NCBI GenBank assembly: GCA_020381345.1 | Contig: GCA_020381345.1_3636.1 | DNA length: 64,000 nucleotides | Source: a phage | Reading direction: 5' to 3' (one strand) | Translations under genes and position numbers: made by a program | Part shown: piece by piece, positions 11,255 through 51,439 of the stretch | Position numbering within the stretch: position 1 is the first letter of the stretch | Layout of the letters: the number at the start of each line of letters is the position of its first letter | The notes under the pieces: model-generated | What the model saw: only the letters and a program-made list of their open reading frames with translations | Databases searched by the model: none | Told to the model about the DNA's origin: nothing

Positions 11255-11515
11255 TTACAGCACCTCTTCGTCAACTACTTCATAAAAATGGCCTGGGATT
11301 GCAATAGCGTTCTCACCTTCACCTACAAACACAGTTCCGTCAAGAATCAACATCATAAGAATGTCTGGAATATCCTCTTCCGGAACGTTGCCAAAACTTT
11401 TAATCAGTTTGTAGGTTGGAAGATTTACCTCTAAGATGTCACCATCTTTAGAACGGAAATCTACACCGTCCTGAATCTCTGCCGTTTCAAGGTTTTTCAA
11501 TTTAATCTTCATCAA
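11255..11515 (-). CDS. hypothetical protein (86 aa)
   Basis: ORF track; MMKIKL N-terminus. Confidence 0.5.
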   Translation of the reverse strand: MMKIKLKNLETAEIQDGVDFRSKDGDILEVNLPTYKLIKSFGNVPEEDIPDILMMLILDGTVFVGEGENAIAIPGHFYEVVDEEVL

Positions 11516-11591
11516 TCAGTCTCCTGTCTTGTTAAGATGAAGGTATTATTTCACACAGGGTTGGTGTTGTCAACACCTGTGTGCAAGAAAA

Positions 11592-11987
11592 TTACTGAAA
11601 CAGTGCGGATAAATTACCTTCTGGTGGGAACTTATCTGCCAAAAACGGTGTTAGCACAGTAGCCTTCTGAAGATCTGGGGTCCACTCGTTGTTCAGAACA
11701 TCCCAGTAGTACGCAATGTTACTGTGTGGGTGCCGCATTACGAACTTTTTCCCTTCGTAGTCATCTGAAACCTCTACAGAAGAAATAACAACAGAATCTT
11801 CAAGGGTTTCTTCATAGAAAGATCCGCCTTCAAATTTCCAACGAGATGCAAGAGCCCCTGCCTTGAACGCTGCAGATAACGGACTGTCGGCAAGAACATA
11901 CATTTCTTGCACTCTGTCGCTGCGATCCTTGCTTCTTACGTTGTACACAGTATCTGAGCTATACTCAACACGGTATAGGCTTACCAT
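11592..11987 (-). CDS. hypothetical protein (131 aa)
   Basis: Paralog of 13794..14192 (shared HP-S--YW---WTP block). Confidence 0.5.
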   Translation of the reverse strand: MVSLYRVEYSSDTVYNVRSKDRSDRVQEMYVLADSPLSAAFKAGALASRWKFEGGSFYEETLEDSVVISSVEVSDDYEGKKFVMRHPHSNIAYYWDVLNNEWTPDLQKATVLTPFLADKFPPEGNLSALFQ

Positions 11988-12346
11988 TACCGCACCTCCT
12001 CAATAACTTCCACATCTGAACCCACCACAAATGCAAAAGGACAGGTTTCATGAAAGACATCCGGATCGCCGCCAAGCTTGCTAACAATTTCTCCACCACT
12101 AATAAACACAAGCTCACCGATATTCATCAGATTGCTGAAATAGTATCCATAATGATTAAAGAATGCAGCAGGGTCAGGTAGACTAGTAGCCTCAAGTTCT
12201 ACATCGGTTGAGATTACTTTCTTATCATAACCTCTCGCCTTCTGAGATGCAAGATCTGCAGAATCTTCAGGCGACCGGAGATGCACAGGAATTGTTTCAC
12301 CAATAAAGCGTACTTTCATATTATCACCCAACAACCATAGCTTCAA
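11987..12346 (-). CDS. hypothetical protein (119 aa or shorter)
   Basis: ORF track; internal MKVRFIGE start possible. Confidence 0.45.
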   Translation of the reverse strand: MKLWLLGDNMKVRFIGETIPVHLRSPEDSADLASQKARGYDKKVISTDVELEATSLPDPAAFFNHYGYYFSNLMNIGELVFISGGEIVSKLGGDPDVFHETCPFAFVVGSDVEVIEEVR

Positions 12347-12587
12347 AAGGGGTCATGAACGAATAAACGGCATCATCATCTGCTTCAGGGAATGCTCCCA
12401 AAGACTTCATGTCTGAGCCTTTGACAAATACAAGGTTTTGATCAAAAGCTTCTTGGGGGTCAATCCGATACATATTTCGTAGAATATCACCTACCTCTTC
12501 ATCAAGAGGTGAGTATGCTGTGCACGTTTTTCCGATCAAGCTTTGAGAATCAGGGTATCCACCTGAAGTTTTAAAATAAACAATCAT
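12324..12587 (-). CDS. hypothetical protein (87 aa)
   Basis: Resembles the 14205/14449/18104 family (GYP and VxVKGxDxxSxGA motifs). Confidence 0.5.
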   Translation of the reverse strand: MIVYFKTSGGYPDSQSLIGKTCTAYSPLDEEVGDILRNMYRIDPQEAFDQNLVFVKGSDMKSLGAFPEADDDAVYSFMTPFEAMVVG

Positions 12588-12678: not shown

Positions 12679-12948
12679 TTATTCCTCTACAATCTCATAC
12701 ACATCAGGAGTTACAATCAACTCTTCTCCGTTACCCGGTGCAACAAACACCACCATGCCTTCAGGTGTGTGCTTTTTAGCCATCTCGATAACATCTTCTC
12801 GCAGAGCTGGCTCCATCAGATCAAAACCTTCACCCAGGGCATCACGAACCACCTTCATATAGTCAACTGGTTGTGCTTCGACAATCATGCCTTCAACCAG
12901 TCCACAGTTTTTGTCTGCCAGCTCAGTTTTGAATAATTTAATTTTCAT
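12679..12948 (-). CDS. hypothetical acidic protein (89 aa)
   Basis: ORF track; MKIKLF N-terminus. Confidence 0.5.
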   Translation of the reverse strand: MKIKLFKTELADKNCGLVEGMIVEAQPVDYMKVVRDALGEGFDLMEPALREDVIEMAKKHTPEGMVVFVAPGNGEELIVTPDVYEIVEE

Positions 12949-13085
12949 TTAGAGGTCTCCTCAATTATTTGATATTAATAGCCGTAACCTAACACATTAA
13001 CTACAACTGCGATTGCAAACATAATTTCAAAGCATGCAATCTCTACATTTGGGACTAATTTCTTAATCATACCTATTGTAGCACC

Positions 13086-13403
13086 TCATTCTCCAAAGTC
13101 AATCTTTACTTTGCCTTTCCCCTTACCTTTCTTTCCACCGCATTTAGCCAGCTGACGTGCTGCAACATCTACCATACGGTCAGTTGCCTCGTAAGCATCA
13201 CTACCTTTAGCCTTGGCAATAACTTCTTTTCCAGAATTGTCAAAAATGAGCGCCATAACTTCCTGGTGATCATTTTCAACTTTTACACTTACACGTGCAT
13301 GATTTACAGAAGGATGTAGACGCTCCAGTTTTGACATTTTGTGGGAAATGAAAGACACCATACCTTCGGTGATTTCTACGTTGCCAGTGATCTCAATTTG
13401 CAT
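13086..13403 (-). CDS. ribosome hibernation promoting factor / RaiA-family homolog (105 aa)
   Basis: MQIEITGNVEITE N-terminus, VKVE block and ARQLAK C-terminal motif match the short HPF/YfiA family as recalled from E. coli; Lys/Gly-rich tail. Confidence 0.75.
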   Translation of the reverse strand: MQIEITGNVEITEGMVSFISHKMSKLERLHPSVNHARVSVKVENDHQEVMALIFDNSGKEVIAKAKGSDAYEATDRMVDVAARQLAKCGGKKGKGKGKVKIDFGE

Positions 13404-13485
13404 AACGTGTTCCTTTTAAAGAAGAGGGAATAACTCTCTCTTTGAAAACAATAATACTATAACTGAAGCGTTGTGTCAACAGTTT

Positions 13486-13793: not shown

Positions 13794-14192
13794 TCAGTTT
13801 AGCTTTTCTTCAACAACCCCATAACTTGGGGCAGAGTCAAGAGCTTTCTGGTTTAAAAGTGGCGTAGCAGAATCTGCAAACGGTGTCCAAGTTTTTGTTC
13901 TGGCATTCCAGTAATGCTTAACTCTGGAATCTGGATGCACTATAACAAAAACTTTTTCACTTGTCAACACATTAATTTCTTCTACACCCTTGCTGATAAT
14001 TTCTCCGTCATAGCCCCCAGTCTGGTATCCTTCGTACCAGGTTCTTGCATAGGCATAGCCAGCCTGCCAGCATGCAGCCTCCTCCGAGGTGGAGACTACG
14101 TAGAAGTCTTTCTCAAATTCTGGAATACGCCCTTGCTTTACGCTCCAAGCCCCGCGAATTTTCATTGTAACTTTAAACAGTTTATTTTTCAC
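13794..14192 (-). CDS. hypothetical protein (132 aa)
   Basis: Paralog of 11592..11987. Confidence 0.5.
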   Translation of the reverse strand: MKNKLFKVTMKIRGAWSVKQGRIPEFEKDFYVVSTSEEAACWQAGYAYARTWYEGYQTGGYDGEIISKGVEEINVLTSEKVFVIVHPDSRVKHYWNARTKTWTPFADSATPLLNQKALDSAPSYGVVEEKLN

Positions 14193-14204
14193 AACGGTTA
14201 CCCA

Positions 14205-14459
14205 TCACAGCTCTACAATATCTGCATCTGACCCTACCCCAAAGGCATAGTAGGACTCTTCCCCGAAATAATATTCAGGTGCACCAGCGGTGATCAGGTC
14301 TGATCCTAAGATAAACACCACGTTGTGGCCTACATAACTGTGATGTTGCCGCACAGGATCATCCCACGGCAACCCTTCAAAGTATACCGCAGGGACGACC
14401 TTTCCTTTCAGGAAGGATTGCCCCAAGTAGACGTTAGAATCAAGAATTTTAACCTTCAT
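14205..14459 (-). CDS. hypothetical protein (84 aa), MKVK-LDS family
   Basis: Paralog of 14449..14676 and 18104..18337 (MKVKxLD, YxGQ, GxDLIxAGA). Confidence 0.5.
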   Translation of the reverse strand: MKVKILDSNVYLGQSFLKGKVVPAVYFEGLPWDDPVRQHHSYVGHNVVFILGSDLITAGAPEYYFGEESYYAFGVGSDADIVEL

Positions 14460-14676
14460 GATCGTCCTCCACTATCTCTACATCCTCACCTAGGGCAAAG
14501 TTGTAGGTCCACTGACTGTCAAAGCATTCCTGAGATGCACCAGCGGCAATAAGATCTGCCCCTTTTATTTTTAAAAGGTCAGGGTAATCTTCGTTAGGGA
14601 CAGCAGTAAACACTTTCCCCACTAAAGGCTCCTGACCAATATAGAAGCTTGAATCTAAAACTTTAACTTTCATCAA
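14449..14676 (-). CDS. hypothetical protein (75 aa), MKVK-LDS family
   Basis: Paralog of 14205..14459. Confidence 0.5.
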   Translation of the reverse strand: MMKVKVLDSSFYIGQEPLVGKVFTAVPNEDYPDLLKIKGADLIAAGASQECFDSQWTYNFALGEDVEIVEDDHEG

Positions 14677-50499: not shown

Positions 50500-50574
50500 G
50501 CCCTGTTAGCTTAGTGGATAAAGCAGCGGCCTTCTAAGCCGTTGACACTGGTTCGAGTCCAGTACGGGGTGCCA
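50500..50574 (+). tRNA. tRNA-Arg (anticodon TCT)
   Basis: Hand-folded cloverleaf: acceptor GCCCTGT/ACGGGGT, anticodon loop CTTCTAA, T-loop TTCGAGT, encoded CCA. Confidence 0.7.
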
Positions 50575-50704
50575 AGTTCTTTTTAATGTAGCTTACTTTA
50601 GCAGAGTAAATCTTCGGCAAGTGGCGGTAACCACTTTACCGATACCTCATAGTTAGTGGTGAGAACACTAGCTATTTTAAAAAGAATTTAAATATTAGTA
50701 TTTA

Positions 50705-50792
50705 GGTGAGTTAATTCCGTAGGGGTAGCGGGGCAGACTGTAAATCTGTTATCATTGCGATTCGGGTGGTTCGACTCCATCACTCACCACCA
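50705..50792 (+). tRNA. tRNA-Tyr (anticodon GTA), long variable arm
   Basis: Acceptor GGTGAGT/ACTCACC, anticodon loop CTGTAAA, T-loop TTCGACT, CCA; 88 nt. Confidence 0.6.
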
Positions 50793-50906
50793 AATTTATA
50801 TTTTTAAATGCATAAATCATACAGATAATGGCATTGATATTTATCGTCGTTTATACTAGTCACTAACTGCTCGAAAATCAGTGTCATTATCAGTATTGTT
50901 TATAAA

Positions 50907-50997
50907 AGAGGGTAGGGAGCAATGGTGCTCAAGCGGTCTTGAAAACCGTCCCGTTGAGGATTACTCGATGATGGTTCGATTCCATTATCCTCTGCCA
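50907..50997 (+). tRNA. tRNA-Ser (anticodon TGA), type II
   Basis: Acceptor AGAGGGT/ATCCTCT, anticodon loop CTTGAAA, T-loop TTCGATT, CCA; 91 nt. Confidence 0.6.
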
Positions 50998-51095
50998 TAT
51001 TGTTGACCTTGTAATTAAGCGAAAGCCGGAAGCAGAACCGGATTATCAAATGTTACAGTCGTCATCGCCGACTAGCAACATGGTCAACATACTGA

Positions 51096-51192
51096 GCTAG
51101 GTAAGCCCTTTGGCAAGGGCGAGGATTTTTAATCCTGAAAATAGACGAGGTAGTCGTTGAATACATAGGTGGTTCGATTCCATCACCTAGCA
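51096..51192 (+). tRNA. atypical tRNA-like element (97 nt), anticodon uncertain
   Basis: Acceptor GCTAGGT/ACCTAGC, D-arm GCCC/GGGC, T-arm GGTGG-TTCGATT-CCATC, but non-canonical anticodon arm, 29-nt extra arm, A at position 8, no CCA. Confidence 0.35.
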
Positions 51193-51199
51193 CCTTTTT

Positions 51200-51275
51200 G
51201 CTGATGTAGCACAATTGGTAGTGCAATTGATTTGTAATCAATAGGTTGCAGGTTCAAGTCCTGCCATCAGCACCA
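51200..51275 (+). tRNA. tRNA-Thr (anticodon TGT)
   Basis: Acceptor GCTGATG/CATCAGC, anticodon loop TTTGTAA, T-loop TTCAAGT, CCA. Confidence 0.7.
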
Positions 51276-51276
51276 T

Positions 51277-51351
51277 GGCCCTGTAGCTGGAAGGTTCAAG
51301 CAAGCGACTCATAATCGCCAGACGGTGGTTCAATTCCACCCAGGGCCACCA
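51277..51351 (+). tRNA. tRNA-Met or Ile2 (anticodon CAT)
   Basis: Acceptor GGCCCTG/CAGGGCC, anticodon loop CTCATAA, T-arm GGTGG-TTCAATT-CCACC, CCA; D-stem weak. Confidence 0.55.
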
Positions 51352-51362
51352 AATAATGAATA

Positions 51363-51439
51363 CTCCGCGTAGCTCAGCTTGGTAGAGCGCCTGATTTGGG
51401 ATCAGGAGGTCGAGTGTTCGAATCACTCCGTGGAGACCA
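51363..51439 (+). tRNA. tRNA-Pro (anticodon TGG)
   Basis: Acceptor CTCCGCG/CGTGGAG, D-arm GCTC-AGCTTGGTA-GAGC, anticodon loop TTTGGGA, T-loop TTCGAAT, CCA. Confidence 0.7.

Follow-up and report, generated by a model that had tools for sequence, protein, structure and literature searches.

An HPF/RaiA-family protein of rV5-like phages, conserved under purifying selection, with a partly replaced putative ribosome-contact surface

The phage hpf gene has been annotated since 2008, when ORF144 of rV5 was named a sigma-54 modulation factor (record DQ832317). In Mizuno et al. 2019 (Nat Commun 10:752) its 105-aa product (ABI79209) appears with four relatives in a list of virus-encoded HPFs; the authors aligned the viral protein, placed it among the gammaproteobacterial HPFs, and proposed competition with the host homolog. 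Mathieu et al. 2020 counted hpf among the auxiliary genes in five rV5-like phages of the gut, and we found nothing in the literature on phage HPF experiments beyond these two papers. In the databases the gene goes by 'sigma 54 modulation factor', 'hpf', 'ribosome hibernation factor', or 'RaiA', and in the records of the bov*/NWU phages hpf is labelled 'ATP-dependent protease La type I'. The sequence-only reading of this DNA implied that the gene was new, which these earlier records contradict.

Mizuno et al. 2019 also report ribosome experiments of the kind that the sequence-only reading had proposed as checks. They expressed rV5 HPF from pBAD24 in E. coli NM522, with 1 mM arabinose present from the pre-culture until an OD600 of 1, pelleted the ribosomes through 0.5 M NH4Cl, and analyzed the 70S and 100S fractions by mass spectrometry. 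Peptides of viral HPF, among them the C-terminal VKIDFGE, were detected in the crude extract and not on 70S or 100S ribosomes, and the level of 100S ribosomes was unchanged by expression of the viral protein.

The window, by which we mean the whole stretch of 64,000 nucleotides that was analyzed, belongs to an rV5-like Vequintavirus, and its hpf-like ORF is gp144 of that phage. The 3 kb around hpf are 97-98.5% identical at the nucleotide level to rV5-like myoviruses (genus Vequintavirus) in 121 records, which include FFH2, phita32, rV5, and the BASEL phages. The ORF starts with ATG and translates as MQIEITGNVEITEGMVSFISHKMSKLERLHPSVNHARVSVKVENDHQEVMALIFDNSGKEVIAKAKGSDAYEATDRMVDVAARQLAKCGGKKGKGKGKVKIDFGE, with the N-terminus MQIEITGNVEITE and a Lys/Gly-rich C-terminal stretch. 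It had been described accurately from the letters, except that its strand was left unstated; it is the minus strand. The features at the locus are as follows.

13086..13403, minus strand: hpf-like coding sequence, ortholog of rV5 ORF144 / ABI79209, 105 aa and stop codon (ORF listing, PF02482, TIGR00741)
13140..13403, minus strand: core domain, residues 1-88, with the β-α-β-β-β-α HPF/RaiA fold (AlphaFold2, Foldseek, dN/dS)
13089..13139, minus strand: Lys/Gly-rich C-terminal tail, residues 89-105 (GGKKGKGKGKVKIDFGE), predicted to be disordered (pLDDT <50 for residues 90-105)
13410..13416, minus strand: Shine-Dalgarno-like AAAGGAA, 6-7 nt before the ATG (sequence reading; an RBS is annotated at the same place in Murica)
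13451..13479, minus strand: σ70-type promoter TTGACA-17-TATTAT directly upstream of hpf, 'P144' of rV5 (consensus scan, 11/12 matches)
13075..13102, minus strand: second promoter-like site TTGACT-16-TACAAT with TG, overlapping the last hpf codons (consensus scan, 10/12; a consensus match only)

Within Vequintavirus, the window protein differs from that of rV5 by A33V, Y35H, and F52L, and some isolates have an extra Asn, reading GNNVEIT as in E. coli instead of GNVEIT. The hpf core differs from that of rV5 at about 6% of nucleotides (17/264, mostly synonymous) and the surrounding 3 kb are 97.6% identical; hpf may have a recombination history unlike that of its neighbors. Eighteen records named 'Campylobacter phage' (MG0656xx) also match the hpf region of this E. 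coli phage, the best of those listed at 97-98.5% identity. One of them, 'Campylobacter phage' D1, is an UNVERIFIED, unannotated record classified as Vequintavirus, and the host label is probably wrong or reflects contamination.

It is virtually certain that the phage protein is a member of the HPF/RaiA family, and the homology to HPF/YfiA proposed from the sequence alone is borne out by profile, sequence, and fold searches. Both family profiles scored above their cutoffs: PF02482 (Ribosomal_S30AE, 'sigma-54 modulation protein') at 51.2 bits against a gathering cutoff of 23.7 (E 2.1e-13), with phage residues 3-88 covering profile positions 1-83 of 88, and the NCBIfam model TIGR00741 (HPF/YfiA family; yfiA) at 49.8 bits against a cutoff of 40.9. 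The protein is nearer to short HPF than to RaiA and is an equivalog of neither, scoring 58.4 bits against the cutoff of 125 for the short HPF (YhbH) equivalog NF007780 and 19.3 bits against the cutoff of 158 for the RaiA (YfiA) equivalog NF007654. A phmmer search of the PDB likewise gave E. coli HPF as the best match (2RQL, E 9.2e-13, residues 1-89 on 1-89), with E. coli YfiA far weaker (E 0.11), and no PDB entry was closer to the phage protein than the cellular HPFs. The E. coli HPF reference that we used agrees with the PDB chains over residues 1-89, and within this span the motifs MQIEITGNVEITE, VKVE, and ARQLAK, recognized by the sequence-only reading, are present and align with MQLNITGNNVEITE, LKVE, and ARQLTK. 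Among phage protein families, phrog_12469 matched at 230.7 bits over positions 1-105 of 105 and PHROG 8990 ('S30EA') at 30 bits.

The AlphaFold2 model has a mean pLDDT of 83.7, with values of about 87-95 over residues 1-80, and places strands at residues 2-7, 33-42, 47-55, and 60-67 and helices at residues 13-29 and 70-89. The top 34 Foldseek matches in the PDB are all HPF, YfiA, or pY (best E 1.5e-9, TM 0.8-0.9), and the model superposes with an rmsd of 1.1-1.2 Å on V. cholerae HPF (4HEI) and on the HPF in the E. coli 100S ribosome (6H4N_x). The weaker matches at ranks 36-45 are dsRNA-binding domains.

The gene lies in a run of small minus-strand ORFs of about 20 kb, downstream of a ClpP-like protease and of replication and nucleotide-metabolism genes. 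All ORFs of at least 250 aa in the window lie beyond 19.9 kb, in phage DrSchubert the corresponding region consists of small minus-strand genes without a break, and the rV5 genome paper describes the region as '88 mainly small ORFs' in transcription unit 82-163. The placement of hpf in a 'block of small early genes' thus holds for the block, by ORF size and by synteny with DrSchubert, while 'early' is a reading of the promoters: host-type σ70 promoters suggest that hpf would be expressed early. P144 is already annotated in the rV5 record as a sigma70-type promoter, and its -35 context, AAACTGTTGACA, is also kept in a contig of a divergent lineage described below (L003). The second promoter-like site is without annotation in rV5, and its position would suit driving the downstream small ORFs. 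The extended promoter motif ACTGTTGACA has 17 matches in the window against 6 expected, a modest enrichment that is uninformative for function. A literature search for transcriptome or timing data on rV5-like phages found none, and the rV5 genome paper has predicted promoters only. The 5' UTR of hpf is not more stable than shuffled sequences (z = +1.1), giving no sign of a regulatory leader, and an Rfam scan of 10-17 kb found nothing at the hpf locus and one chance sub-threshold match elsewhere. A Pfam scan of nine neighboring small ORFs found no domains, so that the context suggests no functional partner.

Several other features of the window were noted along the way. Modules of paralogous small genes flank hpf on the minus strand (11255-12587 and 13794-14676): the 131-aa ORF 11592-11987 resembles the 132-aa ORF 13794-14192 (28% identity, E 3e-10), and two ORFs of about 80 aa, 14205-14459 and 14449-14676, are paralogous to each other (41% identity, E 3e-15) and more weakly related to 11987-12346 and 12324-12587. 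Many of these flanking ORFs end in acidic C-termini resembling E-[IV]-V-E, and none has a known domain. Immediately after hpf is a 31-aa hydrophobic ORF (12975-13070, minus strand, MIKKLVPNVEIACFEIMFAIAVVVNVLGYGY), which the records of rV5 and the BASEL phages list as a hypothetical protein of 33 aa and which has no counterpart in L003 by tblastn at E 1e-3; it probably encodes a small membrane peptide. Two genes downstream of hpf, an 89-aa ORF (12679-12948, minus strand) is called 'sigma 54 modulation factor' in APCEc02, nom, and nomo, and is probably labelled likewise in navn and SophiaRose, whose rows list that name twice. This ORF has no Pfam match and no similarity to hpf, and the label looks like an off-by-one annotation in APCEc02 that propagated. 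Elsewhere, a tRNA cluster at 50500-51439 on the plus strand comprises Arg-TCT, Ser-TGA, Thr-TGT, Met-CAT, and Pro-TGG, and at 51096-51194 ARAGORN also calls an odd 99-nt element whose 'anticodon' has four bases (atcc), perhaps a tRNA that is degenerate or unusual.

By tblastn, the protein is found in 119 records of the phage collection, all of them Vequintavirus at 94% identity or more except for one Salmonella genome contig. In the roughly 118 Vequintavirus records the protein is 94-98% identical, with the same neighbors and promoter as in rV5 and DrSchubert. We also found an ortholog in an uncultured sister lineage of the rV5-like phages, represented by four Logan/ENA contigs of 15-125 kb (L003-L006; the longest of the cluster is about 137 kb). 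This protein, P0004, has 103 aa and is about 64-65% identical to the window protein, and the gene order around it is kept. The small ORFs around hpf in this lineage are 40-60% identical at the amino acid level, and the syntenic blocks range from 40 to 87%. The lineage has no representative in the 50,697-record phage collection.

We used the hpf coding sequences of 10 other Vequintavirus records and of the four sister-lineage contigs to look at selection. Over core codons 1-88, nine of the 10 Vequintavirus comparisons with the window gave dN/dS of 0.036-0.072 at dS of 0.25-0.55; the tenth, with the near-identical DrSchubert, has 3 differences and is uninformative for dN/dS. Pooled pN/pS for the core is about 0.07. 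The hpf core is under strong purifying selection. A decaying pseudogene is ruled out by these dN/dS values.

The gene also appears to have been in these phages for a long time. An exhaustive phmmer search of 1.84 billion representatives recovered P0004 at 65% and otherwise nothing above 45% identity or 49 bits (a word-indexed protein search had returned 5 matches only). Given this isolation and the lack of any cellular match above 45% identity, we infer that the phage hpf clade is old and isolated and not a recent pick-up. Recent transfer from the host, suggested by the 2019 paper, is unlikely: no cellular HPF is more than about 45% identical, and the base composition, GC3 included, is fully that of the phage (GC 0.42, GC3 0.34).

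The C-terminus also differs from that of the cellular proteins. A Lys/Gly-rich tail had been claimed from the sequence alone, and residues 89-105 indeed contain 6 Lys and 6 Gly. In cellular homologs α2 runs on as K-H-K-[DE]-K-[LMI]-[KR], whereas the Vequintavirus protein has a break at G89-G90 followed by (K/G)n, and none of the 38 cellular representatives compared has a (KG)n tail. The tail of the sister lineage is a different sequence and likewise basic (KYSKSKGIDKRTAKWDY). Among the Vequintavirus sequences the GGKKGKGK segment stays intact, its codons changing synonymously, while the last 5-7 residues vary by frameshift or truncation, giving proteins of 99 aa in Murica, 101 aa in APCEc02, and 103 aa in JEP1. 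'Campylobacter phage' D1 is also among the records with an altered C-terminus, and one record ends in '…DFWD'; some of these variants may be homopolymer sequencing errors. At the 3' end of hpf the DNA GTAAAGATTGAC(TTT) is conserved even where the hpf frame is shifted, and this conservation, together with the overlapping promoter-like site, suggests that the protein end may be constrained at the DNA level.

In the core, we compared the residues that touch the ribosome. A 2025 cryo-EM preprint (10.1101/2025.10.07.680626) gives the α2 contacts of short HPF and RaiA as K80, R83, K87, K89, K91, and K93, places K26/Q29 near C1496/G1497, beside m3U1498, and has H/R55 and E60 touching the C-terminus of uS9 and T53 and V/H62 touching m2G966. 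We aligned the phage proteins with 38 cellular representatives and with E. coli HPF and YfiA, and in E. coli HPF numbering scored ten basic positions, eight from the preprint (26, 29, 80, 83, 87, 89, 91, and 93) and two, 17 and 23, added on conservation alone. The window protein is basic at 6 of the ten and P0004 at 5, compared with 9 for E. coli HPF, 8 for RaiA, and at least 9 for 27 of the 38 cellular representatives; three cellular sequences score as low as the phage proteins, and their C-termini look truncated or frameshifted. K23, K26, R29, R83, K87, D69, Y71, and D75 are retained in both phage lineages; the window protein also retains K91 and E60, and K91 and Q84 occur in Vequintavirus only. 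Position 8 is deleted in both lineages, and the replaced residues are R17, K80, K89, K93, T53, and H55, which are V, V, G, G, L, and F in the window protein and V, T, S, G, R, and F in the sister lineage. The tail lysines are out of register with the conserved basic positions. Because the same positions are affected in both lineages and the gene is under purifying selection, the change looks like a stable functional shift and not decay.

We re-read Supplementary Data 2-5 of Mizuno et al. 2019 for the host factors, since the main text does not mention RaiA or RMF. Host RaiA is present on the washed ribosomes of two parallel preparations (score 22.6 in the bS21 sample; score 137 with 6 spectra in the bL12 sample). 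In the cells that expressed viral HPF, RaiA, HPF, RMF, and viral HPF are all missing among 71 ribosome proteins, while the crude extract of these cells contained all four (scores of 188, 210, 217, and 94, respectively). Because RaiA survived the wash, the wash does not strip this class of factor completely, and the negative result for the viral protein is meaningful, though not decisive. It means that viral HPF is less salt-stable on ribosomes than RaiA, or does not bind. The same data carry a hint, from a single non-quantitative comparison, that viral HPF keeps host RaiA off ribosomes. Viral HPF was low in the crude extract, which weakens both the negative binding result and the hint of RaiA displacement.

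These data bear on the function that had been guessed from the sequence, namely that during takeover the protein keeps the ribosomes of the host inactive or diverts translation. The sole published experiment lends this no support, as the protein was not recovered with 70S or 100S ribosomes. The finding goes half way towards the refuting outcome of no ribosome association, in that the protein was absent after 0.5 M NH4Cl from the ribosomes of E. coli cells expressing it from pBAD24. There was also no discernible effect on 100S dimers, and the cells grew under continuous induction, which argues against gross toxicity under the conditions of that study.

We tentatively favor a mechanism in which gp144 would be a weak, salt-labile binder of the decoding site that competes with host factors, and not a classical silencer, and we regard this as plausible though short of probable. 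Soon after infection, gp144 would dock like HPF or RaiA in the 30S decoding channel of vacant host ribosomes. Docking of the core would be weakened by the replacement of R17, K80, K89, K93, T53, and H55 and the deletion of position 8 in both lineages, and the flexible Lys/Gly tail might stand in for the helical basic C-terminus, leaving the core where, by analogy with RaiA, the tail of that protein leaves towards the RMF site. Such transient, salt-labile occupancy could compete with host RaiA/HPF (and RMF) and build no 100S dimers, so that ribosomes would be capped yet quickly recoverable for phage mRNAs, instead of entering durable hibernation. For action at this site speak the family and fold matches, the purifying selection, the promoter, and the retained residues. 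We base weak, competitive binding on the 6/10 or 5/10 basic positions, the absence of viral HPF from ribosomes washed in 0.5 M NH4Cl, the unchanged 100S level, the growth under continuous induction, and the hint from the missing RaiA. Against it, the one published binding test is negative, and the loss of contacts fits complete loss of binding equally well. A weaker binder would also have to be in excess to displace a tighter one.

A bolder form of competition, which we consider unlikely, is that gp144 would act as a decoy against hibernation: its core would have been selected for weak and quickly reversible binding, its tail would sterically exclude RMF, RaiA and HPF would be evicted or excluded, and 100S formation would be prevented. 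If so, the ribosomes of slow-growing gut E. coli would stay available for phage mRNAs, and the RaiA loss in the published supplementary data would be the first trace of the effect.

It is similarly doubtful that gp144 works as a classical hibernation or shut-off factor, which would bind tightly to vacant ribosomes, block the tRNA and mRNA sites, and with host RMF form inactive 70S and 100S ribosomes, shielding the parked ribosomes from RNases until phage mRNAs need them. The full-length homology and shared fold with E. coli HPF, the 58 bits with the HPF model against 19 with that of RaiA, the retention of R83, K87, K23, K26, D69, Y71, and D75, the σ70 promoter, and the strong purifying selection all fit this model. 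However, expression in E. coli changed no 100S level, left no detectable protein on 70S or 100S ribosomes, and allowed growth under induction; both phage lineages lack 4 of the 10 conserved basic residues; and the Gly-Gly break with its long tail resembles the RMF-opposing arrangement of RaiA and not that of HPF. A general silencer would also silence translation of the phage.

The absence from ribosomes in Mizuno et al. 2019 could instead mean that the protein has taken up a new function, a reading to which we give rather little weight. The dsRBD-like HPF fold would then work off the ribosome, binding other RNA (phage or host mRNA, tRNA) or a protein, with the tail as a nucleic-acid anchor. 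This would agree with the loss of contact residues in both lineages and the conservation of the new residues under purifying selection, with the isolation of the clade among 1.84 billion representatives, where the sister ortholog alone exceeds 45% identity, and with the dsRNA-binding domains among the weaker fold matches. On the other hand, most fold-defining residues and several rRNA contacts (R83, K87, K23, K26, D75) are kept, and the context suggests no other partner, with no RNA family or structure nearby.

We think it improbable that gp144 serves as a ribosome shield, occupying the A and P sites to guard the decoding center or 16S rRNA from abortive-infection toxins or RNases activated by infection. 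The fold and predicted binding site are those of cellular HPFs, cellular HPFs are reported to guard ribosomes against nucleolytic decay (S. aureus HPF against RNase R, PMC8406268), the promoter is of the early type, and the unusually broad host ranges of Vequintavirus would fit the carriage of a counter-defense gene, a link that we infer. This reading depends on the same putative ribosome binding, however, and the neighboring genes have no recognizable domains. Finally, a decaying passenger gene from an enterobacterial host, functionless in the phage, would account for the frameshifted or truncated C-termini of some isolates and the lack of a phenotype in E. coli, but the selection analysis effectively refutes it (dN/dS of about 0.05 over dS of up to 0.55), as about 119 records and the sister lineage (64% identity, with synteny and promoter kept) have an intact ORF and its composition is fully phage-adapted, so its chance of being right is close to nil.

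Were its function solved, gp144 would offer a clear example of a virulent phage that encodes a host stress-response factor acting on the ribosome, and it might account in part for how well rV5-like phages do on gut E. coli, which are often slow-growing. To the published work we add the purifying selection, the conserved promoter, the eroded contact surface, and the novel tail; the last two, with the possible exclusion of RaiA, make for a sharper hypothesis.

Among known systems, gp144 and its Vequintavirus orthologs are the same gene at the same position with the same promoter, P144, and the differences are only allelic. The best match outside the phages is E. coli short HPF (YhbH, 95 aa; 2RQL, 6H4N chain x), at 41-44% identity depending on variant and alignment and an rmsd of 1.2 Å, with the same β-α-β-β-β-α domain and the N-terminal motif MQ(I/L)xITGxNVEIT common to both; the helical KHKDKLKQH end of E. 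coli HPF is replaced by the tail, predicted to be disordered, in the phage protein. E. coli RaiA (YfiA, protein Y; 113 aa) shares the family, the fold, and a tail that extends well past α2, as it does in the 105-aa phage protein, for which the RefSeq name is 'ribosome-associated translation inhibitor RaiA'. In contrast to these likenesses, RaiA is only 24% identical, its tail ends acidic where that of the phage is Lys/Gly-rich, and it stayed on ribosomes through the salt wash after which viral HPF was absent. The HPF of Cronobacter phage GAP32 (111 aa) and the 'S30EA' phage proteins of PHROG 8990 belong to the same Pfam family as the window protein, which has its own PHROG, 12469; neither the window protein nor E. 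coli HPF gave a tblastn match to them at E 1e-3, and Mizuno et al. 2019 place GAP32 elsewhere in the tree, implying independent acquisition. Long HPF (Firmicutes, Thermus, and others; ~190 aa) has the same fold in its N-terminal domain (5njt, 5nd8, 6qbz), whereas the phage protein has 17 tail residues, predicted to be disordered, in place of the C-terminal dimerisation domain.
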